Source: a virus (Duplodnaviria > Heunggongvirae > Uroviricota > Caudoviricetes). Taken from it: 22,748 nt of DNA. The notes beneath the pieces are model-generated. The model had not been told where the DNA came from, searched no databases, and saw nothing but the letters and a program-made list of their open reading frames with translations. The stretch is taken from IMG/VR virus record IMGVR_UViG_2534682096_000014; one strand, written 5' to 3'. Positions 860 through 16,605 of the stretch are shown in pieces (positions within the stretch are counted from its first letter, which is position 1; each line of letters starts with the position of its first letter). A program made the position numbers and the translations under genes.

Positions 860-1912
860 ATGAATCTGGTGATGTCAGATATTACCCGCAACAAGCTGGG
901 TTGCTATATGGCGCAGCAGGCGTCGCTTAACAATATCCCGGTTTCCGCACTGGTATCGCGATTTACCGTGGAACCCTCGGTACAGCAGCGTTTTGAAAAC
1001 GCCTCAAAGGAAAGCACCGAATTTACAAAAAGAATTAACGTGATCGGCGTGACCGACCAGAAAGGCGAAAAAATCCTCCTGGACACCACCGGGCCAATTG
1101 CACGCACGAATACCAGTTATGACGGCACAAAACGCCGTAACCCGAATAACGTGGTTGATCTGAAAAACCGCAAATACCAGTGCGAACAGGTGAACTACGA
1201 CACGTTTATTTCGTATCCGCAGCTTGATGCCTGGTCGGCACACCCTGATTTTCAGTCCCGCATCAGCGCACAGATTGCCCGACAGGTGGCGCTTGACCGC
1301 ATCATGATCGGTTTCAACGGCACGTCTCACGCGGATGAGTCCAACTTCAGCACCAACAAGCTGCTTCAGGACGTTAACGTGGGCTGGCTGGAGCACATCA
1401 GAACCGACGCCAGCGAACGCGTTATGAATGACGTGACGCTGACCTCCCGCAACATGGACAACACCGTGGCGCACGCGGGTAAGTATGCGAACGCTGATGC
1501 ACTGGTACAGGACGCGCGTTCATCCCTGCTGGATGAATGGCACAAGGAAGCTGACGACCTCGTGGTGATTATGGGGCGCAACCTGTTTAACTCGCTGCGT
1601 CTGCCCGTGCTGAACAGCATCAGCGGCCAGAATCCCAATGCGGAATTACTCGCCGGACAGCTCATCCTGTCATCGCGCACCATTGGCGGGCTGGATGTAT
1701 TCCTTGCGCCGTTCTTCCCGGATGCAACGATGCTGATCACCTCATTCAACAACCTGTCAATTTACTGGCAGAAAGGTTCAATGCGTCGCCTGATGAAAGA
1801 CGAGCCGGAATACAACCGCATCGCCACCTACCAGTCCATCAATGACGCTTATGTCGTTGAAGACTATGGCAAGTGCGCAATGGTCACTGGCCTGAAGTTC
1901 GCCGACAGCTAA
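860..1912 (+). CDS. N: major capsid protein (gpN-like)
   Basis: ORF 806..1912; start placed at ATG 860 preceded by AAGGAG at 845-850; contains the FTVEPSVQQ motif typical of P2-family major capsid proteins. Confidence 0.85.
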   Translation: MNLVMSDITRNKLGCYMAQQASLNNIPVSALVSRFTVEPSVQQRFENASKESTEFTKRINVIGVTDQKGEKILLDTTGPIARTNTSYDGTKRRNPNNVVDLKNRKYQCEQVNYDTFISYPQLDAWSAHPDFQSRISAQIARQVALDRIMIGFNGTSHADESNFSTNKLLQDVNVGWLEHIRTDASERVMNDVTLTSRNMDNTVAHAGKYANADALVQDARSSLLDEWHKEADDLVVIMGRNLFNSLRLPVLNSISGQNPNAELLAGQLILSSRTIGGLDVFLAPFFPDATMLITSFNNLSIYWQKGSMRRLMKDEPEYNRIATYQSINDAYVVEDYGKCAMVTGLKFADS

Positions 1913-1957
1913 TCAACTCACGGCGGGCATCATGCCCGCCAGTAACGGAGAGAAAAA

Positions 1958-2758
1958 ATGATTACTCCTGCACAGCAACACTGGCAGAACGTGATGGCAC
2001 AGCGCGCAGGCCGGGCGAATGAAGGCGTGGACCACGCCGCGCGTACCGCGCATGAAGAGGTGCTGTATCGTCTGCGTCTGGCACAGGCCCGGCTTAAGGG
2101 CGTACAGGCCAGAAGCGCGAAAGCCGCCATCAAAAAAGAGTTGTTGCCGGATTTTTCCGGCTGGATTGAGGGAACGCTGGAGGCTGACGGCGGGCAGCAG
2201 GATGAAGTGATTGCCACGCTGATGGTGTGGGCGATTGACTGTGGCGATCTTCCGCTTGCGCTGCGTATCGGCGCGTATGTGGTCCGTCATAACCTCATTA
2301 TGCCGGATAACTTTGGCCGTACTGCTGCCACAGTGCTGACCGAAGAAATCTGCAACCCGGTACTGACGCAGGCCGGGACGGATGCCGACGCGGATTTGTC
2401 CGCCTTTATCGAACCGCTGGACACCCTCCGGAAGATTGTCACCGACCAGGACATGCCGGACGAAGTACGCGCCAAATTATGCAAGGCGTGCGCCTTTGCC
2501 CGTCGTGGTCTGACCGATGCAGACAACATGGCCTTATCACTGAAGCTGCTGCGCGAAGCGATGCACCTGAACCCGAACGCAGGTGTGAAACGCGAGATTG
2601 CAACCCTTTCCCGCGCCCTGAAAAAAGCCGATTCCGCAGCCGAACCAGAAGACGCCAGCGCACAGCAGGCGCAGGACGAAAGCAGCAAAAGTAAAAAGAC
2701 AACGCGGAAGCCTGCAACACGAAAAACCACCGCGACGCAGAAGGCGAAGCGCGGTTAA
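1958..2758 (+). CDS. M: terminase endonuclease (small) subunit (gpM-like)
   Basis: 266 aa ORF after N with GGAGAG RBS; basic, Lys/Thr-rich C-terminal tail; position matches P2 M. Confidence 0.75.
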   Translation: MITPAQQHWQNVMAQRAGRANEGVDHAARTAHEEVLYRLRLAQARLKGVQARSAKAAIKKELLPDFSGWIEGTLEADGGQQDEVIATLMVWAIDCGDLPLALRIGAYVVRHNLIMPDNFGRTAATVLTEEICNPVLTQAGTDADADLSAFIEPLDTLRKIVTDQDMPDEVRAKLCKACAFARRGLTDADNMALSLKLLREAMHLNPNAGVKREIATLSRALKKADSAAEPEDASAQQAQDESSKSKKTTRKPATRKTTATQKAKRG

Positions 2759-2859
2759 CAACTGACCCCGTCAGCGGGCGGCGTGCGCGGTGTTCCGGTT
2801 TGACTCCGTGACCGTTTACACCGCGCACCCACCGCCCGATTTTTTCAGGAGTGAACCCC

Positions 2860-3354
2860 ATGAGTATGGTTGCCAGAACCAACCCCAGACCCGCAGAGGA
2901 CGACATCACCGATACCGATGATGGCGATACCCGCATTTCAGCGGGTGCATTCTGGCCGGATATTGTGCTGCGCGAGCTGCGTCTGGCGGTACGACTGCCG
3001 GGCCGCGTGACCACCTCCCGCCTGCTGCATAGTGCCACCGGGGCCGTGGCACACGTTACCCGCGAGCTGGAAGCATGGCAGCAGGAACAGCAGGCAGCTG
3101 GCCATCAGACGCTGGCCGATGTTCCGGCACCCGTAATTAACGGAGAAAGCGTCAATCTCTGGCACTGGCGCAATGCTGTTTATACCGCCACGCGCGCCCT
3201 GATTCTGGAGCGTTATCGTGATGCAGACACAACGGACAAGGGCGACCGCCGGGCGGACGCTCTGGATATACAGACATCGGATTTGTGGCGTGATGTGAGC
3301 TGGGCCATCTCTGACATTCTGTGCCGCCCGCGAATGTTTGCGGAGTTGTGCTGA
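2860..3354 (+). CDS. L: head completion/stabilization protein (gpL-like)
   Basis: ORF 2851..3354; ATG 2860 lies 8 nt after AGGAG at 2847-2851; position between M and X. Confidence 0.7.
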   Translation: MSMVARTNPRPAEDDITDTDDGDTRISAGAFWPDIVLRELRLAVRLPGRVTTSRLLHSATGAVAHVTRELEAWQQEQQAAGHQTLADVPAPVINGESVNLWHWRNAVYTATRALILERYRDADTTDKGDRRADALDIQTSDLWRDVSWAISDILCRPRMFAELC

Positions 3355-3554
3355 TGAAAGTGAAGGCACTGGAAGGCGACACCGTGGATTCGCTCTGTTT
3401 CCGGTACTACGGCACGACGCAGGGCGTCACCGAAAAGGTGCTGGATGCCAACCCCGGACTCTGTCAGCAGGTATTTCTGGACGCCGGGCAGGAAGTGGAG
3501 ATGCCGGAGCCGGAGAAGAAGAAACGAGAAATGATTCAGTTGTGGGGGGAGTAG
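3354..3554 (+). CDS. X: tail protein X (gpX-like, LysM-like)
   Basis: 66 aa MKVKALEGDTVDSLCFRYYG...; start ATG overlaps the L stop as ATGA; small protein in the expected position before the lysis genes. Confidence 0.7.
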   Translation: MKVKALEGDTVDSLCFRYYGTTQGVTEKVLDANPGLCQQVFLDAGQEVEMPEPEKKKREMIQLWGE

Positions 3555-3556
3555 CA

Positions 3557-3880
3557 GTGAGCACCATTCAAACAGGGATCACAGAGCAGGTTATTGCGTG
3601 GCTCTTTGACCACCTGCCAACGGTGTATGCAGTAGGCGCGGCGGTCAGCATTTCCGCGCTGATGAGTCTTTATGACGGACGAACACTGGTTCAGACCGTA
3701 ACGGGATCGCTGGCGTGCGGCGTTCTTGCCATGGCCGTGGCCGGGTCGTTGCGCTTCTTCGGTTTTCCTGAAGATGCCGTGACGTTTATCGGCGCATCAA
3801 TCGGTTTTATGGGCGCAGAGAAAGCACGCGACAAGGTTATTGCAGCCTTTAATCGCAGGGTGAAGGAGAAGGACGAATGA
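3557..3880 (+). CDS. Y: holin (gpY-like)
   Basis: GTG start directly after the X stop; 107 aa with hydrophobic stretches (VYAVGAAVSISALMSL, LACGVLAMAVAGSL) and a charged C-terminus; directly upstream of the endolysin. Confidence 0.7.
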   Translation: MSTIQTGITEQVIAWLFDHLPTVYAVGAAVSISALMSLYDGRTLVQTVTGSLACGVLAMAVAGSLRFFGFPEDAVTFIGASIGFMGAEKARDKVIAAFNRRVKEKDE

Positions 3881-4269
3881 GCAACACATTTAAATTCAGC
3901 AGCCGGAGCGAAAAGAATTTGCAGGGCGTAAATCCTGATCTGGTGAAAGTGACCCGACGGGCACTGGAAATTTCGGAAGTGGATTTTGGTATCACCGAAG
4001 GGTTGCGCAGTCGTTACCGCCAGAAGCAACTTGTGGCCACGGGTAAGAGCCAGACCATGAACAGCCGCCACCTTACGGGACATGCCGTGGATGTTGTGGC
4101 TTATATCGGCAGCCAGGTGTCATGGGAATGGCCGCTGTACGAAAAAATCGCAGCAGCATTCAGACAGGCCAGCCGGGAACTGAATATTCCGGTGGAATGG
4201 GGCGGCGACTGGAAGACCCTGAAAGACGGACCGCATTTTCAGTTACCACACGGAGCCTATCCGGCATGA
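3877..4269 (+). CDS. endolysin, peptidase M15 / VanY-like zinc peptidase type
   Basis: 130 aa; SRHLTGHAVDV and WGGDW...GPHFQL motifs resemble L-Ala-D-Glu peptidase-type endolysins; ATG overlaps the holin stop (ATGA). Confidence 0.65.
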   Translation: MSNTFKFSSRSEKNLQGVNPDLVKVTRRALEISEVDFGITEGLRSRYRQKQLVATGKSQTMNSRHLTGHAVDVVAYIGSQVSWEWPLYEKIAAAFRQASRELNIPVEWGGDWKTLKDGPHFQLPHGAYPA

Positions 4270-4673
4270 AGCTCTGGCCCACGCTGGGTGTCGCTTTCCT
4301 TCTGATTGCCGCATGGGGAACATCCATGCGTCTGTCGTGGTCGCTGGGCCGGGAGAACGCCAGAAACGAAGCGCAGGCCAGCGCCCTGAAAAGTACCGTC
4401 GACACCCTGAATATCATCAGCACCGGGGTACAGGATATGCAGCAGGTGCTGGCGCAACTCCGCGTGGAAAATCAACAGAGAAATCAGGACGGAGAGGCCA
4501 GACGTGAACAGCTACGCAACGATATTGCAAAAGATGAATGCGCCCACGCTTTGCCTGACGCTCGTTTTACTGACAGGTTGCGCAGGCACGCAGAACGCGC
4601 CACTGCCAGCGCCGTCAGTCCGGCTTATACCGCAGACGCTGACCATACCGGTAACGCCTCCCCCCTTCCCTGA
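4266..4673 (+). CDS. lysB: i-spanin (LysB/Rz-like)
   Basis: ATG 4266 overlaps the endolysin stop; N-terminal TM helix LWPTLGVAFLLIAAWG followed by a charged, coiled-coil-like region. Confidence 0.6.
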   Translation: MKLWPTLGVAFLLIAAWGTSMRLSWSLGRENARNEAQASALKSTVDTLNIISTGVQDMQQVLAQLRVENQQRNQDGEARREQLRNDIAKDECAHALPDARFTDRLRRHAERATASAVSPAYTADADHTGNASPLP

Positions 4674-8255: not shown

Positions 8256-10481
8256 ATGAGTACCACAACACGAAAATTTAAAACCGTTATCACCGATACG
8301 GGTGCAAAAAAATTAGCTCAGGCAGCCGCGCCAGATGGTAAGCCTGTCCGCCTGACTCATATGGCCGTGGGCGACGGTGGCGGCACGTTGCCCACACCAG
8401 ACAGTAAGCAGACCCGTCTGGTGCATGAGGTGTGGCGACATACTGTTAATCGCGTCATCCTGGACGCAACACATCAGAACCGCATTATTGCGGAGCTAGT
8501 TATTCCTCCTGAAACGGGCGGATTCTGGATCCGGGAAATTGGTGTATTTGATGAGCACGGCGATTTAATCGCGGTGGGAAATACTGCCGAAAGTTACAAG
8601 CCAGCCGTTGCCGAAGGGTCCGGTCGTGCACAAACATTTCGCACCATTCTGACCGTATCCAGCACTGCCACCGTGGCGCTTACCGTGGATAACACCATGG
8701 TGATGGCCACAGTGGATTACGTGGATGACAAACTGAAAGAGCATGAACAGTCACGACGTCACCCGGACGCCTCGCTGACCGCAAAAGGCTTTGTTCAACT
8801 CAGTAGCGCCACTAACAGCGTGTCTGAAACGCAGGCTGCAACGCCGAAAGCAGTAAAGGCCGCGTATGATCTTGCTAACGGTAAATATACTGCGCAGGAT
8901 GCCAGCACGACGCGAAAAGGCCTTGTCCAGCTCAGTAGCGCCACCAACAGCACGTCTGAAACGCAGGCTGCAACGCCGAAAGCAGTAAAGGCCGCGTATG
9001 ACCTTGCTAACGCAAAATATACCGCTCAGGACGCTACGACGGCACAAAAAGGGATAGTCCAGCTCAGTAGTGCCACCAACAGCACGTCTGAAACACTGGC
9101 CGCGACATCGAAAGCGGTTAAGGCGGTAATGGATGAAACGAACAAGAAAGCGCCCTTAAACAGTCCTGCGTTGACCGGAACGCCAACAACGCCAACTGCG
9201 CGACAGGGAACGAATAATACCCAAATCGCAAGCACGGCTTTCGTTATGGCTGCGATTGCCGCCCTTGTAGATTCGTCACCTGACGCACTGAATACGCTGA
9301 ACGAGTTAGCGGCGGCGCTGGGAAACGACCCGAATTTTGCGACCACCATGACTAACGCGCTTGCGGGTAAGCAACCGAAAGATGCCACCCTGACGGCGCT
9401 GGCCGGGCTTGCTACTGCGGCAGACAAGTTTCCGTATTTTACGGGGAATGATGTCGCCAGCCTGGCAACCCTGACAAAAGTCGGGCGGGATATTCTTGCG
9501 AAATCGACCGTTGCTGCCGTTATCGAATACCTCGGTTTACAAGAAACGGTAAATCAGGCTTCTGGCGCATTACAGAAAAACCAGAACGGCGCAGATATTC
9601 CAGGAAAAGATACCTTCACAAAAAATATTGGTGCATGTCGCGCTTTTCACAGTGCTATTAGTACAGGGGCAGGGAACTGGACAACGGCACAATTGATTGA
9701 ATGGCTGGATTCTCAAGGGGCATTCAATCACCCATACTGGATGTGCAAATGTTCATGGTCATACGGCAATAATAAAATTATTACCGATACTGGCTGTGGA
9801 ACTATTCATCTTGCAGGTTGCGTTATTGAGGTTATGGGTAATAAAGGTGCCATGACCATCCGTGTAACCACCCCGAGCACTTCCAGCGGTGGCGGAACTA
9901 CTAATGCACAATTTACTTATATAAACCACGGTGGAGATTATGCGCCAGGCTGGCGGCGTGACTACAGTACCAAAAATCAGCAGCCTGCATTTGCTTTAGG
10001 GCAGACAGGAAGCACTGTTGGAAATGACAAAGCTGTTGGATGGAACTCAAATAGCGGCGTTTATAATGCGACTATTAGTGGAGCGTCAACATTGATTCTT
10101 CACTTTAATATGAATGCGGGGAGTTGCCCGGCGGTTCAGTTCCGTGTGAATTATAAGAACGGCGGTATTTATTATCGTTCAGCGCGAGATGGTTATGGAT
10201 TTGAGGCTGACTGGTCAGAGTTTTATACCACAACACGCAAGCCATCAGCAGGAGATGTTGGTGCATATACCAAAGCCGAATCAGATTCTCGCTATGTACG
10301 AGATATTCGCCTGGGCACACGTGTTGTTCAGACTATGCAAAAAGGCGTGATGTATGAGAAATCAGGTCATGCAATTACGGGGCTTGGCATTGTCGGTGAA
10401 GTTGATGGCGATGATCCGGCAGTATTCAGACCAATACAAAAGTTAATTAACGGAACATGGTATAACGTATCGCAGGTATAA
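8256..10481 (+). CDS. H: tail fiber protein H (expressed variant in the current orientation)
   Basis: 741 aa; conserved P2 H-type N-terminus, three tandem 44-aa shaft repeats, variable distal part, conserved extreme C-terminus; the 3' portion lies inside the invertible segment. Confidence 0.85.
8787..9182 (+). repeat. tandem coding repeat, 3 x 132 bp (44-aa tail-fiber repeat, third copy diverged)
   Basis: [44 protein letters not shown] repeated with period 132 bp (copies begin at 8787, 8919, 9051). Confidence 0.8.
9520..9601. repeat. left inverted repeat of the invertible segment, including a gix/hix-like crossover site (ttatcgaatacctcggtttacaagaa, 9520..9545)
   Basis: About 71 bp (9531..9601) matches the reverse complement of 12502..12572 at 69/71 positions; the outer 26 bp resembles the recombination sites of Gin/Hin/Cin/Pin systems. 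Confidence 0.7.
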
Positions 10482-10483
10482 TC

Positions 10484-11017
10484 ATGCAGCATTTAAAAAA
10501 CATTGTCGCAGGTAATCCAAAAACCGTTGAACAATATCAGCTAACAAAGAATTTTAATGTTATCTGGTTATGGTCCGAAGACGGAAAAAACTGGTATGAG
10601 GAAGTGAAAAACTTTCAGGAAGATACAATAAAACTGGCTTACACTGTAGAGGGAATAATTGTTGCTATGGATAAAGATGTATCGGCAATTAATCCAGAAG
10701 GTTTAAGTGTCGTTGAGTTGCCTGATATTACAGCAAATCGCCGGGCTGATATTTCGGGGAAATGGATGTTCAAAGATGGCGTAGTGATAAAGCGAACTTA
10801 TACCGAGGAAGAGCAGAGGCAACAAGCGGAAAATGAAAAGCAAAGCCTGCTACAGCTCGTCAGGGATAAAACACAGCTATGGGACTCACAGCTACGGCTG
10901 GGTATCATTTCCAACGAGAATAAACAAAAATTAACCGAGTGGATGCTCTATGCGCAGAAGGTCGAATCCACAGACACCTCCAGCCTGCCAGTAACGTTTC
11001 CAGAACAACCAGAATGA
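10484..11017 (+). CDS. G: tail fiber assembly chaperone (gpG / Tfa), expressed copy
   Basis: 177 aa immediately after H; N-terminus [20 protein letters not shown]; paralog of the - strand ORF at 11046..11573. Confidence 0.8.
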
Positions 11018-11020
11018 AAC

Positions 11021-11040
11021 AAGGCCCGCTATCGGGCCTT
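11021..11040. terminator. hairpin between the convergent Tfa genes (aaggcccg ctat cgggcctt, then T-rich on the + strand)
   Basis: 8-bp GC-rich stem followed by aatttttatt; sits at the centre of the invertible segment. Confidence 0.4.
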
Positions 11041-11045
11041 AATTT

Positions 11046-11573
11046 TTATTCAGGCTTTTGTGGCCATTCAGGATTTGCCGTATCCACACGGCTGACCAGA
11101 ACACTATAGCGTTCCCATGACTCCAGTCGTGCGCGTTCCTCATCCGTCGCCATATTCAGCCTGACAGCGCGTTCCAGTGGCTGAATAACGTTTTCTGCTT
11201 CGGAAAGTAACGCGGCCTTTTGTGATTCGGCCTGTTGTTGTTGCTCGTCTGCCGTATAAATCCGTTTAACCACAGCTCCGTCCTTAAACATCCACTTACC
11301 GGAATCATCAGCACGACGATTAGCTGTAATATCAGGAACCTCAACGACGCTATAACCTTCAGGGTTAAGCGTGGAGGCATCTTTGGTGATGGCGACAATA
11401 ATATTATTTGCATCGTAAACAATCTTTATTGTGTCTGGCTGAAAGTTTTTCACTTCCTCATACCAGTTTTTTCCGTCTTCGGACCATAACCAGATAACAT
11501 CAAAATTCTTTGTTAGCTGATATTGTTCAACGGTTTTTGGATTACCTGACTTAATGTTTTTTAAATGCTGCAT
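11046..11573 (-). CDS. alternative tail fiber assembly chaperone (Tfa'), silent cassette partner
   Basis: 175 aa; first ~45 residues nearly identical to G, C-terminal third diverged; convergent with G. Confidence 0.8.
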
Positions 11574-11576
11574 AAT

Positions 11577-12566
11577 TTACACCTGCGCAACGTTATACCA
11601 TGTGCCATTGATGTATTTTTGTATTGGTCTGAATACTGCTGGGTCATCACCATCAACTTCACCGACAATACCAAGCCCCGTGATTACATGGCCTGATTTT
11701 TCATACATCACGCCTTTTTGCATGGTCTGAACAACACGTGTGCCAAGTCTGACATCTCTCACATAGCGGGAATCAAAGTTACCGTAATCCGAGGGGTTAA
11801 CACGCCCTGTAATATTTATGGTTTTATTACTTTGAATGCTGCCGGAGACAAAGCGCATAACATGGACGTTATTAGCATAAACATCCAGATACCCGTCGCC
11901 ATTTTGTTTAAATCCCGTGTCATTATCACCCAAAACAATCGAGTTACCGCCAAGAGCACTGGATGTTCCGATACCCAATGCACCATTCAATTGACCGCCA
12001 GATAATGACAACGCCCCAACCTCAGCAGCAGTCGGTTTAATGTGCGAACTGTAAATTACATATACAGTTCCATCTGTCAGGCCTGTTGGTTTATTCGCTG
12101 TATAAGTTGGTGATGTATGAATTTGTACAGTTGCATCCTTTGTATAATCCCACTGGATATTAACACCTGTGGCGTAATTACCTATTTCTACATAAATGTC
12201 ATAGGTATCACCGGATGTATTCACCCATGCAAAATTAGTAAATCCAACCGAGGTCCGTCGCCATAATGCACCAGTAAGACCTTTTGGATTTCCATTTCCC
12301 GCACGAAGAACAAGTTCAGATATACCAGCCTGCATAGGGGAGTTAACATTATATCCAGCACCACCAATCAGACTTATGTAAACCACGGAACTGGCTTGTG
12401 GCATTGTTACAGTTGCCAGTTTGAACCATCCAGCACCACCACTAAAAGACATGGTTGTTGAATTTGTTGTGCCGATATTACGCAGGAATAGTTTTTTATC
12501 GGGAATATCTGCGCCGTTCTGGTTTTTCTGTAATGCGCCAGAAGCCTGATTTACCGTTTCCTGCAA
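11577..12566 (-). CDS. alternative tail fiber C-terminal cassette (H'), promoterless in this orientation
   Basis: Begins inside the right inverted repeat with the same [21 protein letters not shown] junction as H residues ~428-448 (the apparent start is a TTG continuing an upstream reading frame); conserved C-terminal ~60 aa, different middle region. Confidence 0.75.
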   Translation of the reverse strand: MQETVNQASGALQKNQNGADIPDKKLFLRNIGTTNSTTMSFSGGAGWFKLATVTMPQASSVVYISLIGGAGYNVNSPMQAGISELVLRAGNGNPKGLTGALWRRTSVGFTNFAWVNTSGDTYDIYVEIGNYATGVNIQWDYTKDATVQIHTSPTYTANKPTGLTDGTVYVIYSSHIKPTAAEVGALSLSGGQLNGALGIGTSSALGGNSIVLGDNDTGFKQNGDGYLDVYANNVHVMRFVSGSIQSNKTINITGRVNPSDYGNFDSRYVRDVRLGTRVVQTMQKGVMYEKSGHVITGLGIVGEVDGDDPAVFRPIQKYINGTWYNVAQV

Positions 12567-12583
12567 ACCGAGGTTTTAGATAA
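12502..12583. repeat. right inverted repeat of the invertible segment, including a gix/hix-like crossover site (ttcctgcaaaccgaggttttagataa, 12558..12583)
   Basis: Reverse complement matches 9531..9601; the outer site is a near-palindromic 26-mer. Confidence 0.7.
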
Positions 12584-12637
12584 TGGCTGTTTCTGACCTG
12601 CATGGCATGATTTACGCTTTTGGACGGGAGATTCAGC

Positions 12638-13225
12638 GTGCTGATTGGCTATGTAAGGGTATCAACAAATGACCAGAATACAGACCTGCAACGAAACGCT
12701 CTTGTTTGTGCAGGATGTGAACAAATATTTGAAGATAAATTAAGCGGGACAAAGACAGACCGACCGGGATTAAAACGCGCTTTAAAGCGTCTTCAAAAAG
12801 GTGACACGCTGGTTGTCTGGAAACTGGATCGCCTCGGGCGAAGCATGAAACATCTGATTTCTCTCGTCGGGGAACTACGGGAGCGAGGGATTAATTTTCG
12901 CAGTCTGACCGACAGCATAGATACATCTTCTCCAATGGGGCGTTTTTTCTTCCACGTGATGGGTGCCCTGGCTGAAATGGAACGTGAATTAATTGTTGAA
13001 CGTACACTGGCCGGACTGGCGGCAGCGCGCGCACGGGGGCGCACAGGCGGACGTCGACCGAAGCTGACAAAAGAACAGCATGAGCAAATAGCAAGGCTGA
13101 TTAAAAACGGTCACGACAGAAAACAACTGGCAATAATTTACGGCATTGGTACATCGACGATTTATCGTTACCACCCCGCAGGAGAATCAAGCGGAACAAT
13201 AGAGAAGAGTCAGAAAACAAAATAA
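12638..13225 (+). CDS. DNA invertase, serine recombinase of the Pin/Gin/Hin/Cin family
   Basis: VLIGYVRVSTNDQNTDLQRNAL... with the catalytic-Ser motif and a C-terminal HTH; GTG 12638 preceded by GGAG; the ORF track starts at TTG 12620. Immediately adjacent to the invertible segment. Confidence 0.85.
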   Translation: MLIGYVRVSTNDQNTDLQRNALVCAGCEQIFEDKLSGTKTDRPGLKRALKRLQKGDTLVVWKLDRLGRSMKHLISLVGELRERGINFRSLTDSIDTSSPMGRFFFHVMGALAEMERELIVERTLAGLAAARARGRTGGRRPKLTKEQHEQIARLIKNGHDRKQLAIIYGIGTSTIYRYHPAGESSGTIEKSQKTK

Positions 13226-13260: not shown

Positions 13261-13749
13261 TCAGAACAGCCCTTTAACTGAACTGGCCGCGCTGTTAAGA
13301 GATGATGTCACCTTATCTTTGAAGCCGGACAGCATATCGCTGAATGATGAGGATTGCAGGCGTTCCCGCAAATCCTCATCACAGCGTTCAAGGGTCAGTG
13401 AAAATTCTATCTTTTTCGCCTTACCGTAGCGATCAAACTCGGAACGGGTCGTATTCGTTTCAGTCAGCACATACATGCCGTAAATCTGCCCGACACTATC
13501 AATCAGAGGCCAGGGGCGTCCTGTATACGCCTGCGTGGTCAGCAGCGACAGCGACACTTCGCCACCTGTAATTTCAGGATAAAGCACACCAGAAAGAACG
13601 ATGCGATCATCACCTGCACCGATATACTGCCAGCTTGCTGAACGGTTAACGCGTTCATTTTTCACATGCCGCCAGCTTTTGTTTTGCTGTAACTGCTGAT
13701 GCGGCAACGTGCGCAGCTCAAAAACAAACATGCCGTAGATCATCATCAT
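13261..13749 (-). CDS. U: tail protein U (gpU-like)
   Basis: MMMIYGMFVFELRTLP...VLSGVLYPE..GG resembles P2 gpU; start chosen at the ATG 8 nt after GAGGAG; ORF track start is 13755. Confidence 0.8.
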   Translation of the reverse strand: MMMIYGMFVFELRTLPHQQLQQNKSWRHVKNERVNRSASWQYIGAGDDRIVLSGVLYPEITGGEVSLSLLTTQAYTGRPWPLIDSVGQIYGMYVLTETNTTRSEFDRYGKAKKIEFSLTLERCDEDLRERLQSSSFSDMLSGFKDKVTSSLNSAASSVKGLF

Positions 13750-13761
13750 GGCCATGACTCC

Positions 13762-16605
13762 TCAATCTTTATCGTAAAAACTGCCACGCCCGGCACGGGC
13801 ACGCCGTTCCATTTCTGCCCTGACCATTTCACCGACCAGTTTCGCCAGTTCGCGGGGATTCTGCGTAACAACGTTATGCAGATGAACATGAATTTCACCA
13901 CCAAATCCGGAGGCAACAGGCTCCCGGTTACGGGAAGTTACAGGAACTGATGCCACTGGAGATCGTATGGCCTCCGCCACCGGGCGGGAGCTGGCCGCAA
14001 CAACAGGGACCAGCGCCGGAGGCAGCGGAGCCGGGACCACGGGGGTGATATTAATTGCGGGGGCAGGCTTACTGACCTGCGCAATCTTCCGCTCCTGCCA
14101 CTCCCCACGAACAGCAAGTGCGCGGGGCAGGTTCTTAAAGACAATATCGCCGGGGCCAATGCGTTTTTTCGTCTCATCAACCAGCTTACCTGTGTTATCA
14201 GCAATTTTGCTGAGTCTGCGTAGCGTCCCGGTATTGCTGTCTGTGAGCGGTTTGTTGTCTTTGGGTTTATCACCTCCGGTGCCATTGCCATTTTCCACAG
14301 GCTTCGGCGGATTGATTTTCGCCAGGTCCCCCTGAAGTAAGGCAACCTTGTCCTGAAGAATGGCCGCACGCTGTGCATCTTCGATTTTCTTGCGCGCCCT
14401 TTCCGCTTCATCCGGAAGGACGCCAAGTTTTTCAAGTATCCACGCCAGCGTATCCAGTAGCATTTTTGCAGGTGTCAGAACAAGTTGTAACGCACCGCCA
14501 AGAACGTTACCGAATATCTCGCCAGCACTGGTACATTTATCCAGCGTTTCCTTGCTGGACTCCATCGGTGACAACAGCGATTTAAACCAGTTAAACACCT
14601 GGCTGATCCCGCTTCCGATTGCGTCAAAAACAGGACCAAACCGTTCAAAGGTTTCGCGCAACGGGGTCAGCCTTTCCATAATCCCGCTGAACACCCCGGC
14701 AAAAAATGCCCTGATGGGATCCCAGTATTTCCAGATAAGAACGGCAGCTCCGGCAAGCGCAGCCACGATAAGACCAACCGGACTGAACAGCGCTCCGATA
14801 GCGCCTCCCAGCAAAGAAACGGAACCCGTCAGCATTCCCCACAGCGCAGGCAACACCCTGACGACATTCATTGACCGGGTAAGAATGTCAAAACCAAGAC
14901 GCAGGGTGGCCAGCTTTCCGTAAAGCACCCCAATAACCAGCGACAACGAGCCAATCGTTGCAGTCATTGCCAGCAACGCACCGCCTGCTATCAGTAGCTG
15001 GCGTGTCAGTACCGGATGGGCCTGCGCCAGCGAGGTGATTTTTTCAAGCACCCGCGTGAGCCACTGCGTGACAGAACGCAGCGGACCGTCAACCAGATCA
15101 CTGATGCGAATACGAAGACCTTCCCATGCGCTGTCGAGATTTTTCAGGTCCCCATCAAGATTATCGGCCATTACTTTTGCAACGCGATCGGCCTCTCCCT
15201 TTGCCCCCTGCAATTCTCTGGTCAGTTTTTGCAGCTCTCCTGAACCAGCCGCCGCAACAAGCGTCTGCAAACCAACGAACGCCTCTTCTCCGGCGATGTC
15301 CTTGAAGAAGGAAACCTGGTCCACCTGTCCGTATTTTTGTGTCGCCTTATAGAGATCAAGCAGCACATCCTCCATCGGGCGCATTTTGCCTCTGGCGTCA
15401 GCAACTGACACCCCCAGCTCTTTCAGCGCATCAGCCGCAGCTTTTGGCGGTGATGCTAGGCGGGACAGACTTGCGCGCATGGCCGTACCAGCATCGCTTC
15501 CGCGAAGACCATTATTGGCAAGCATCCCGGCCATGGCCGTCGCTTCTTCAAGACTGATACCAAGTTTTGCGGCAACCGGACCGGTATACTTCATGGTTTC
15601 GCCCAGCGCGCGTAAATCAGTATTGGTCCGGGTGAATGCTGCTGTCAGCGTATCGCCAACCCGGTCCATTTGATCGGCTGTCAGGTTGAACTGTGTGAGG
15701 ATATTGGAGCCTATATCAGCCGTCTCGCCGAGTTCGACGCCACCTGCCAGCGCCATATTAAGAACACCGGGCAATGCGGCCTGAATGGCCTGCGGAGTAA
15801 AACCAGCCATTGCCAGAAAGCTCTGCCCACTGGCGGCATCACTCGCAGTAAACTGTGTTTCAGAGCCAAGTTTTAACGCCTGCTCACGCAGCGCCTTAAA
15901 CTGCGGGCTGTTTTTGTCGATTCGCGTCAGTGCCTGAACGCGGGACATCTCTTTGCCGAACCCGATCGCAGGCTGCAAAAAACGCCCGGCAGCATAGCCG
16001 CCAGCCGCTGCCGCACCAATTGCCAGCGCACCACCTGTTTTCAGTTTTCCCGCGTTTTCCTGCGCGCGCGAATACCGCTCACGCGCCCGCGTTACACGCG
16101 CAAGCGCCTGCCGTTCGCGTTCAAGCTGGTTGTTGTACTGTTCGGTGCGTCTGATGGCCTGCTGGATGGTGTTATCGCTGCCTGTCAGGGAAATGCCGTG
16201 GCGTTTCAGCTCTCCGCCAAGCTCCCGCATTTTCTGAATTTCCCGTGTGCGCGATTCATTCAGGCGTTCAAGCCGGGTGCTTAACTGCTGCATCAGCTTT
16301 TGTTGTTTTTCGCTGAGCACTGTACCCGTGCGTTGTAACTGATTAAGGGCGTTAAGCTGGCGTCGTGCTTTCACGATGCCCGCATCCGCTTTACTGACAG
16401 CGTCACGGGCGCGCTCAAATGATCGCGCCTGACGCTCGAGATTTTTGATCGCCCCCTGCGTTCGCTGGATGGAGTCACCAAACTGCCCCATCAGGCGGCG
16501 GGCGTTTTCGGCAGGCCGGGTCAGCCTGTCAACGGCGCTGAAAGCGACCCGGATATCAAGAGTCTTCATTGTCTGCATTCCCGCTGCGAAGTGCCGCCCG
16601 CTCAC
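13762..16605 (-). CDS. T: tail tape measure protein (gpT-like)
   Basis: 947 aa, Ala/Gly-rich with coiled-coil N-terminal part and hydrophobic central segments; lies between E/E' and U. Confidence 0.85.
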   Translation of the reverse strand: MSGRHFAAGMQTMKTLDIRVAFSAVDRLTRPAENARRLMGQFGDSIQRTQGAIKNLERQARSFERARDAVSKADAGIVKARRQLNALNQLQRTGTVLSEKQQKLMQQLSTRLERLNESRTREIQKMRELGGELKRHGISLTGSDNTIQQAIRRTEQYNNQLERERQALARVTRARERYSRAQENAGKLKTGGALAIGAAAAGGYAAGRFLQPAIGFGKEMSRVQALTRIDKNSPQFKALREQALKLGSETQFTASDAASGQSFLAMAGFTPQAIQAALPGVLNMALAGGVELGETADIGSNILTQFNLTADQMDRVGDTLTAAFTRTNTDLRALGETMKYTGPVAAKLGISLEEATAMAGMLANNGLRGSDAGTAMRASLSRLASPPKAAADALKELGVSVADARGKMRPMEDVLLDLYKATQKYGQVDQVSFFKDIAGEEAFVGLQTLVAAAGSGELQKLTRELQGAKGEADRVAKVMADNLDGDLKNLDSAWEGLRIRISDLVDGPLRSVTQWLTRVLEKITSLAQAHPVLTRQLLIAGGALLAMTATIGSLSLVIGVLYGKLATLRLGFDILTRSMNVVRVLPALWGMLTGSVSLLGGAIGALFSPVGLIVAALAGAAVLIWKYWDPIRAFFAGVFSGIMERLTPLRETFERFGPVFDAIGSGISQVFNWFKSLLSPMESSKETLDKCTSAGEIFGNVLGGALQLVLTPAKMLLDTLAWILEKLGVLPDEAERARKKIEDAQRAAILQDKVALLQGDLAKINPPKPVENGNGTGGDKPKDNKPLTDSNTGTLRRLSKIADNTGKLVDETKKRIGPGDIVFKNLPRALAVRGEWQERKIAQVSKPAPAINITPVVPAPLPPALVPVVAASSRPVAEAIRSPVASVPVTSRNREPVASGFGGEIHVHLHNVVTQNPRELAKLVGEMVRAEMERRARAGRGSFYDKD

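Follow-up and report, generated by a model that had tools for sequence, protein, structure and literature searches.

The closest described systems to the element considered here are the G segment of phage Mu (S-U/U'-S', with the invertase Gin and gix sites) and the C segment of phage P1 (Cin, cix). Relatives of Cin that perform multiple inversions are also known, such as Min of plasmid p15B, an invertase of the Cin family which acts on tail fibre segments and which has six crossover sites. Furthermore, the tail fibre and chaperone genes of P2, Mu, P1, lambda and the T-even phages are reportedly mosaic. Here we describe an invertible segment in the IMG/VR record IMGVR_UViG_2534682096_000014 (the whole stretch of 22,748 nucleotides is referred to as the window), in which two convergent fibre and chaperone cassettes, H-G and H'-G', carry a second inverted repeat nested within the segment. 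It is likely that this nested repeat exists because both cassettes share one allele type of a single module, and that it is both a product and a substrate of homologous recombination rather than a second invertase switch.

The window corresponds to the late region (22.7 kb) of a P88-like prophage of the P2 family; in long stretches it has 95–98% identity with Escherichia phages 503458, 500465-2 and P88 and with Citrobacter phage Shae_phiSM. Its fibre locus is a canonical invertible tail fibre segment of the Mu G/P1 C kind (Gin/Cin-type). The map of open reading frames (ORFs), together with homology to S'/U' and S/U, places the constant N-terminus of the fibre outside the segment and two alternative C-terminal segments inside it, convergent and each with its own chaperone. 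The 26-bp pattern TTATCNAANACCTCGGTTTNCANGAA has exactly two matches in the window, inverted to each other, with none expected by chance, and the invertase shares 86% amino acid identity with Mu Gin and 73% with P1 Cin (blastp). E. coli AH20J067, FDN-11 and SCU-111 contain this segment, at 98.9–99.7% identity, in the opposite orientation with respect to the invertase and baseplate genes, so the outer switch occurs naturally in both states. The locus shares its gene order and the type of 26-bp crossover site with the Mu G segment and its architecture with the P1 C segment; it differs from Mu in having a P2-type constant fibre part and an H' middle unrelated to Mu S.

The last ~200 bp of H and the first ~130 bp of G had been predicted, from the window alone, to be nearly identical to the reverse complement of the corresponding ends of H' and G'. 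Alignment of both arms confirmed a nested inverted repeat of ~350 bp, which is continuous, spans the fibre 3' end and the chaperone 5' end on both arms, and is not a set of short motifs. The repeat search returned two matches, 10284–10481/11577–11774 (198 nt, 87%) and 10480–10840/11217–11577 (361 nt, 80%); these are one repeat, reported with a 1-nt offset because stop codon and ATG are separated by 2 nt in H-G but by 3 nt in H'-G'. When the arms were aligned globally, the match was ungapped from ~10302 to 10840, with identities per 30-nt block of 25–28/30 in the fibre tip, 27–30/30 in 10511–10630 (116/120 over this interval) and 17–27/30 beyond it. The borders of the original prediction were thus real but slightly displaced, with the repeat starting at 10284 and not at 10275, and with a weaker similarity that reaches ~200 nt further into the chaperone genes. 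The description "nearly identical" holds for the chaperone part (94–98%) and is overstated for the tip part (87%, with a synonymous divergence, dS, of 0.66). With the outer repeat left out, the two halves gave a best local score of 257, against a mean of 11 and a maximum of 16 in 100 dinucleotide shuffles, which rules out a chance or low-complexity repeat.

The encoded fibres H and H' share 94% identity over their last 65 residues, and the chaperones G and G' ~90% (45/50) over residues 1–50, as against 61% for the whole chaperones and only ~30% for their C-terminal ~70 residues. Divergence between the chaperones begins at residue 51, with a semi-conserved island at ~70–105. The expectation that variability would be confined to the fibre middle and the chaperone C-terminal third was therefore correct for the fibre (~9650–10283 and its H' counterpart) and for the chaperone past residue 50, "C-terminal third" being an approximation only. 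The same nested arrangement was found in independent complete assemblies, namely E. coli AH20J067, FDN-11 and SCU-111 and Yersinia phage vB_YpM_5, and an assembly artefact is ruled out by this recurrence in several complete genomes. The nested repeat is thus already present, uncommented, in deposited genomes. No paper discussing an inner repeat was found in the literature on G and C segments, and it is not mentioned in the papers found on Mu-like Yersinia phages and on P1-like plasmids.

Such an inner repeat is not typical of this family. Mu has no inner inverted repeat of at least 40 nt, nucleotide identity being 54% between its two tips and 71% between its two chaperone N-termini, unlike in the window. 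P1 has only one inner match (40 nt at 75%); its long repeat (636 nt) is an outer one beside the cix sites, and its inner junction modules differ from each other, whereas in the window the tip module is of the P1 S type on both arms (75–78% amino acid identity). To place this in a wider context, 80 IMG/VR loci encoding relatives of G, which are the best matches to G, were collected, and the two cassettes of ~70 convergent chaperone pairs were compared at their tips and over the first 150 nt of their chaperones. The usual nucleotide identity was 52–59% from tip to tip and mostly 70–77% between chaperone N-termini; only the window, L005 (of the same sequence type as the window), vB_YpM_5 (L003) and L006 reach 83–90% at the tip and 86–94% at the chaperone N-terminus.

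Analysis of the individual gene products indicates how the H-G cassette is composed. H consists of a P2-type constant N-terminus joined at the left crossover site to a variable part of the Mu S'/P1 S' type, which matches the Mu S/S' fibre structure (PDB 8ju3, E = 6e-158) and has 73–79% amino acid identity to Mu S' (73%) and P1 Sv', identity to P1 Sv' locally reaching 100% in the middle of H. The solved structure of the chaperone Mu U (PDB 5yvq_B) is matched by G (E = 4e-64), which has 86% amino acid identity to Mu U', with a U-type N-terminus and a U'-type remainder. In the silent cassette, G' has 95–96% amino acid identity to Mu U (95%) and P1 U, and H' has a middle unrelated to Mu/P1 S and a P1-S-like tip. 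In a sliding comparison, H-G was 75–100% identical to the S'U' of Mu/P1 up to ~10270 and again from ~10670 (82–100% to Mu U' from 10672 on, with S'-U' identity of 97–100% from 10732). Between ~10280 and 10630 it is only 33–70% identical to S'-U', yet 82–98% identical to the S-U-type partner cassette H'-G'. The same ranges hold for 10324–10611, and the tip part of arm A is 33–66% identical to Mu/P1 S'. In the repeat, an otherwise S'-U' cassette thus has ~350 bp of the other cassette type. The exchange of fibre segments at conserved borders is shared with the known fibre mosaicism of P2, Mu, P1, lambda and T-even phages; the window differs in that both module copies lie inverted within one invertible segment, where they become visible as a nested repeat.

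To identify which parts of such cassettes are inherited together, 150 fibre and chaperone cassettes were extracted, five segments of each were typed, and adjusted mutual information (AMI) was calculated on the 27 distinct combinations. There were eight tip types (last 65 residues) and seven types of chaperone N-core (residues 14–33), and each tip type has its own N-core motif: a 12-residue one for type 0 (P1-S-like), QFNIKWLYSDDG or QFGVVWLYSEDG for tip type 5 (Mu S') and KHGVIWLYSEDG for tip type 6. The AMI was 0.80 between tip and chaperone N-core and 0.72 between chaperone middle and C-terminus, compared with 0.27 between tip and chaperone C-terminus and −0.04 between fibre middle and tip. 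Among 44 distinct type-0 cassettes, the mean pairwise nucleotide identity rises from 0.44–0.52 to 0.76 at ~10265 and peaks at 0.86–0.95 across 10400–10623. This pattern of association, together with the type-0 conservation profile, indicates that the cassettes are inherited as [fibre middle]/[tip + chaperone N-terminus]/[chaperone body], of which the second unit corresponds to the inner repeat and is present as the same type on both arms.

Such a co-inherited module fits the published model of the Tfa chaperone as far as this is summarised in PMC9608196 from North et al. (2019). According to that summary, the N-terminal domain of Mu Tfa binds the distal part of the fibre, a role in trimerisation is proposed for its C-terminal domain, and the protein is reported to stay on the virion. 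The modular Tfa model shares with our data a chaperone N-terminal domain matched to the distal end of the fibre and a generic C-terminal part. Binding of the chaperone N-terminal domain to its cognate fibre end is indirectly supported by the covariation of tip and Tfa residues 14–33 taken together with this model (PMC9608196).

The two halves of the repeat differ in age. The tip arms have a dS of 0.66 and a nonsynonymous divergence (dN) of 0.04 (dN/dS ~0.06). For G and G', dS and dN are 0.10 and 0.06 in chaperone codons 1–50 and 1.6 and 0.22 in codons 51–110; for Mu U and U', dS is saturated and dN is 0.18 in codons 1–50. Judging from these values, the tip arms are two old alleles of one type under purifying selection, and the chaperone N-terminal halves are young or have been homogenised repeatedly or exchanged recently. 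A single recent gene conversion from arm to arm was considered as the origin of the whole repeat and is ruled out by the difference between the tip dS (0.66) and the chaperone N-terminal dS (0.10).

Evidence that recombination occurs within the repeat was obtained from natural relatives. The two chimeric cassettes expected from a crossover in the repeat were built in silico and searched against 5,426 complete E. coli genomes, and both were matched full-length in one piece (in 47 and 26 genomes at a coverage of at least 80%). When relatives were scored at the 67 sites (10289–10720) where the two arms of the window differ, four were found to switch arm alleles inside the repeat, three of them by single clean switches. 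The P1-like plasmid of E. coli AH04 has 27 consecutive arm-A bases up to 10483 and then 40 consecutive arm-B bases from 10505, its two sides being 100% identical to H and to G' of the window, respectively. In NCTC86 the change from B to A falls between 10409 and 10415, and in the P2-like prophage of O145:H28 RM12761 the change from A to B falls between 10334 and 10358. A finer mosaic is found in plasmid pOkiPb01714_2 (OkiPb01714), where an H'-type fibre is joined to a U'-type chaperone body.

Smaller patches are also present among the closest relatives. vB_YpM_5 (a Muvirus), AH20J067, FDN-11 and SCU-111 carry essentially the same 3-kb segment as the window (98.6–99.7% identical) with the same nested repeat. 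AH20J067 has the arm B allele of the window, with vB_YpM_5, FDN-11 and SCU-111 carrying an alternative one. Across the segment vB_YpM_5 has 22 differences from the window, 21 of which lie at 11529–11750 inside arm B, and 18/33 and 21/34 of the segment differences of FDN-11 and SCU-111, respectively, likewise fall within arm B. At 10 of the changed sites in arm B of vB_YpM_5 the base is that of arm A, including nine consecutive informative sites (10334–10418 in arm-A coordinates) with arm-B sites on either side, and this patch looks like a short gene-conversion tract between the arms. On the strength of such haplotypes, the repeat appears to be a hotspot of homologous recombination.

Some further features of these relatives were observed. 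In the AH04 plasmid (NZ_CP081707, L084 4585–5145) the recombinant cassette is followed by an intergenic terminator, the homology ends exactly where the second chaperone would start, and the second cassette and the invertase are absent, the switch being reduced to a fixed single cassette. In NCTC86 (L088, 1143–6233) an invertible pair of G-type cassettes and a truncated recombinase lie downstream of a lambdoid J/lom/stf region, the same tip and chaperone modules being grafted onto a lambdoid side-tail-fibre N-terminus.

From these results, the most probable history of the locus can be proposed. The module would comprise the last ~65 fibre codons (the distal tip, on which the chaperone would dock) and the first ~50 chaperone codons. 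The two cassettes of Mu, like those of P1, carry different versions of it and hence form no inner repeat of this kind. H-G is a mosaic of an S'-type fibre middle, a ~350-bp junction module of S/U type (P1-S-like) and a U'-type chaperone remainder, with the module presumably acquired through homologous recombination at its conserved borders. Carried on both arms, it would then form a repeat that is a substrate for general recombination (by RecA or a phage recombinase), and recombination between the arms may yield both short gene-conversion patches and crossovers which re-pair fibre bodies with the other chaperone body. A number of points weigh against this interpretation. The original exchange cannot be assigned a donor or a direction, an external donor being equally possible, and the other 11 changed sites in arm B of vB_YpM_5 match neither arm, so that the import of a third allele could explain the whole patch. 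In addition, the cassette sample is biased (the IMG/VR loci being best matches to G) and phylogenetically non-independent, and the tip and chaperone N-terminus are physically adjacent, so plain linkage adds to their AMI. The equally adjacent borders between fibre middle and tip and between chaperone N-terminus and middle, however, show a much lower association.

The original prediction had offered two readings of the repeat, an inversion of only the chaperone-proximal core or the footprint of cassette exchange between phages. The latter is strongly supported by the H-G mosaic relative to Mu/P1 and by re-paired relatives with switches inside the repeat, whereas an inner-only inversion was not observed. 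A 2.3-kb query inverted in silico found no complete inner-inverted isomer in the 5,426 E. coli genomes, only native arrangements (~80% coverage in two pieces) and partial relatives. Searches for exact two-anchor chimeric junctions in both directions gave 0 matches in IMG/VR, JGI metagenomes and GTDB genomes, which is a weak negative, as the native control itself found only three IMG/VR contigs and assemblies represent a consensus. Furthermore, all six records with the repeat (the window, L005, vB_YpM_5, AH20J067, FDN-11 and SCU-111) have the native core orientation. A rare inner inversion within populations is possible and compatible with the assembly searches. These observations make it unlikely that RecA crossover inverts only the 10634–11423 core in some cells, giving four combinations of fibre and chaperone body that are kept because they are useful, even though ~350 bp at 87–98% identity is ample for RecA and both re-pairings (S'-type fibre with U-type body and H'-type fibre with U'-type body) occur naturally with switches inside the repeat. 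The re-paired examples are fixed single cassettes or involve a different partner, so intermolecular exchange explains them equally, and the rarity of the arrangement (4 of ~70 pairs) argues against selection for it. Tfa is reported in the summary of PMC9608196 to be on the virion, so the chaperone body could affect adsorption. With the chaperone retained on the fibre tip of the virion, each of the four combinations could have its own adsorption specificity, the locus then being a two-tier generator of host range with fast site-specific inversion of the whole segment and slow RecA-dependent inversion of the chaperone core; we regard this extended version as improbable.

Two other explanations fare worse. 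It is highly improbable that no recombination was involved and that an ancestral similarity simply persisted because a conserved protein interface is under purifying selection. The dN/dS of ~0.06 in the tip arms, with its substantial synonymous divergence, and the fact that the fibre end and chaperone start are the most conserved parts across the family would fit such a history, but Mu/P1 cassettes differ strongly in this region (54–56% nucleotide identity at the tip, and saturated synonymous sites in U/U' codons 1–50), and dS is 0.10 in chaperone codons 1–50 versus 1.6 in codons 51–110. The S'U'-type sequence on both flanks of the H-G patch, with sharp breakpoints, already contradicts it, and clean recombinant haplotypes exist. 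Least credible of all is a programmed nested inversion by the invertase, in a shufflon-like manner, at extra crossover sites beside the inner repeat. Multiple-inversion relatives of Cin, with p15B Min as the example, provide a precedent, Min resembling the present invertase in family and in acting on tail fibre segments, but there are six sites there and two here. The 26-bp search of the window, with three mismatches allowed, found no site in or beside the inner repeat, only the two outer ones, and with two crossover sites the locus does not belong to the multiple-inversion (Min-type) systems. A search of the window with the 15-nt core gave eight hits versus 5.5 expected by chance, none of them a partner near 10270. 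One weak core-like match, AACCCCTCGGATTAC at 11784–11798 on the minus strand, with two mismatches, lies just outside arm B, immediately upstream (in the reading direction of H') of the border of the tip module, and by manual alignment matches 13/22 specified site positions; it could be a relic or pseudo-site at the module boundary, or chance. The repeat is therefore not a second invertase site, and it is probably not a selected switch.

The coordinates of the features discussed are collected in Table 1.

Table 1. Features of the fibre locus and its invertible segment, in window coordinates.
Feature	Position	Strand	Basis
Expressed tail fibre gene H, 741 aa	8256..10481	+	ORF; Pfam Phage_tail_fib, Phage_fiber_2, gp37_C
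Outer inverted repeat, 93 nt, 91%	9516-9608 / 12495-12587		Repeat search; contains left crossover site
Left gix/cix-like crossover site	9520..9545	+	26-bp pattern TTATCNAANACCTCGGTTTNCANGAA
Inner repeat arm A, part 1: last 65 codons + stop of H (tip, type 0, P1-S-like)	10284..10481	+	87% vs reverse complement of 11577-11774
Inner repeat arm A, part 2: chaperone G codons 1-50	10484..10633	+	94% vs reverse complement of 11424-11573
Tail fibre assembly protein G, 177 aa	10484..11017	+	Pfam Caudo_TAP (PF02413), E = 1.1e-33, above Pfam cut-off
Low-identity extension of arm A: chaperone codons 51-119	10634..10840	+	57-90% vs arm B per 30-nt block
Bidirectional hairpin terminator separating the two convergent chaperone genes	11020..11041	both	Terminator-like matches on both strands
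Silent chaperone G', 175 aa, Mu U/P1 U type	11046..11573	-	Pfam Caudo_TAP, E = 5.5e-38, above Pfam cut-off
Inner repeat arm B, part 2: G' codons 1-50	11424..11573	-	Repeat search and alignment
Inner repeat arm B, part 1: last 65 codons + stop of H' (tip, type 0)	11577..11774	-	Repeat search and alignment
Silent promoterless alternative fibre C-terminal segment H'	11577..12566	-	ORF; sliding identities
Right gix/cix-like crossover site	12558..12583	-	26-bp pattern TTATCNAANACCTCGGTTTNCANGAA
Serine DNA invertase	12620..13225	+	Pfam Resolvase (E = 1.5e-50) and HTH_7

Other observations were made on the genes of the locus and their neighbours. The constant part of H contains three tandem 132-nt copies (8783–9178; 100/86/61% identity); these correspond to Phage_fiber_2 repeats of Pfam and are similar to the repeated "a/b" elements in the annotation of P1 S. 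The invertase ORF as called begins with TTG at 12620, the probable true start being the GTG at 12638 (VLIGYVRVS...), from alignment to Gin, Cin and an E. coli homologue. The 5' part of the gene contains enhancer-like sequence, with two stretches of the annotated P1 enhancer matched at ~12659–12672 (14/14) and ~12689–12720 (28/32) (blastn). Tail genes at 13261–16605 (minus strand), encoding a gpU-like protein and a tape measure protein of 947 residues, converge on the fibre and invertase block from the other strand, an arrangement unlike that of P2 itself; these genes also border the segment in the copies carried by the E. coli prophages. In AH20J067, FDN-11 and SCU-111 (1501–4572 of those loci) H' is joined to the constant fibre part and the H segment adjoins the invertase, with differences from the window concentrated in the crossover-site halves (9519–9542 and 12575–12584).

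The segment is shared by phages of different kinds. Between the P2-like prophage of the window and vB_YpM_5, which differs in its Mu-like backbone and its divergent invertase (85% amino acid identity), the invertible segment is ~99.3% identical over 9589–12587, and divergence climbs sharply past the right crossover site, with 26 differences in 12594–12989. The crossover sites appear to delimit a unit that is passed between unrelated backbones.

This locus is another case of known tail fibre mosaicism within a known kind of switch; it involves no new mechanism and is of modest interest in that respect. Its value lies in the fact that the functional modules of a widely distributed fibre and chaperone system are delimited from natural variation alone, with the last ~65 fibre and first ~50 chaperone residues co-inherited and the receptor-specific middle and the chaperone body freely exchangeable around them. 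Both fibre variants would then share one docking interface between tip and chaperone, in which case the differences in host range must lie in the ~200 residues before the tip and possibly also in the chaperone body. For host-range engineering, this suggests that the fibre middle may be exchanged with the tip and the matching chaperone N-terminus retained, and the same division may aid in the interpretation of prophage fibre loci. The homology left by module exchange inside an invertible segment would become a local recombination hotspot, which assemblers and annotators of such loci should anticipate.

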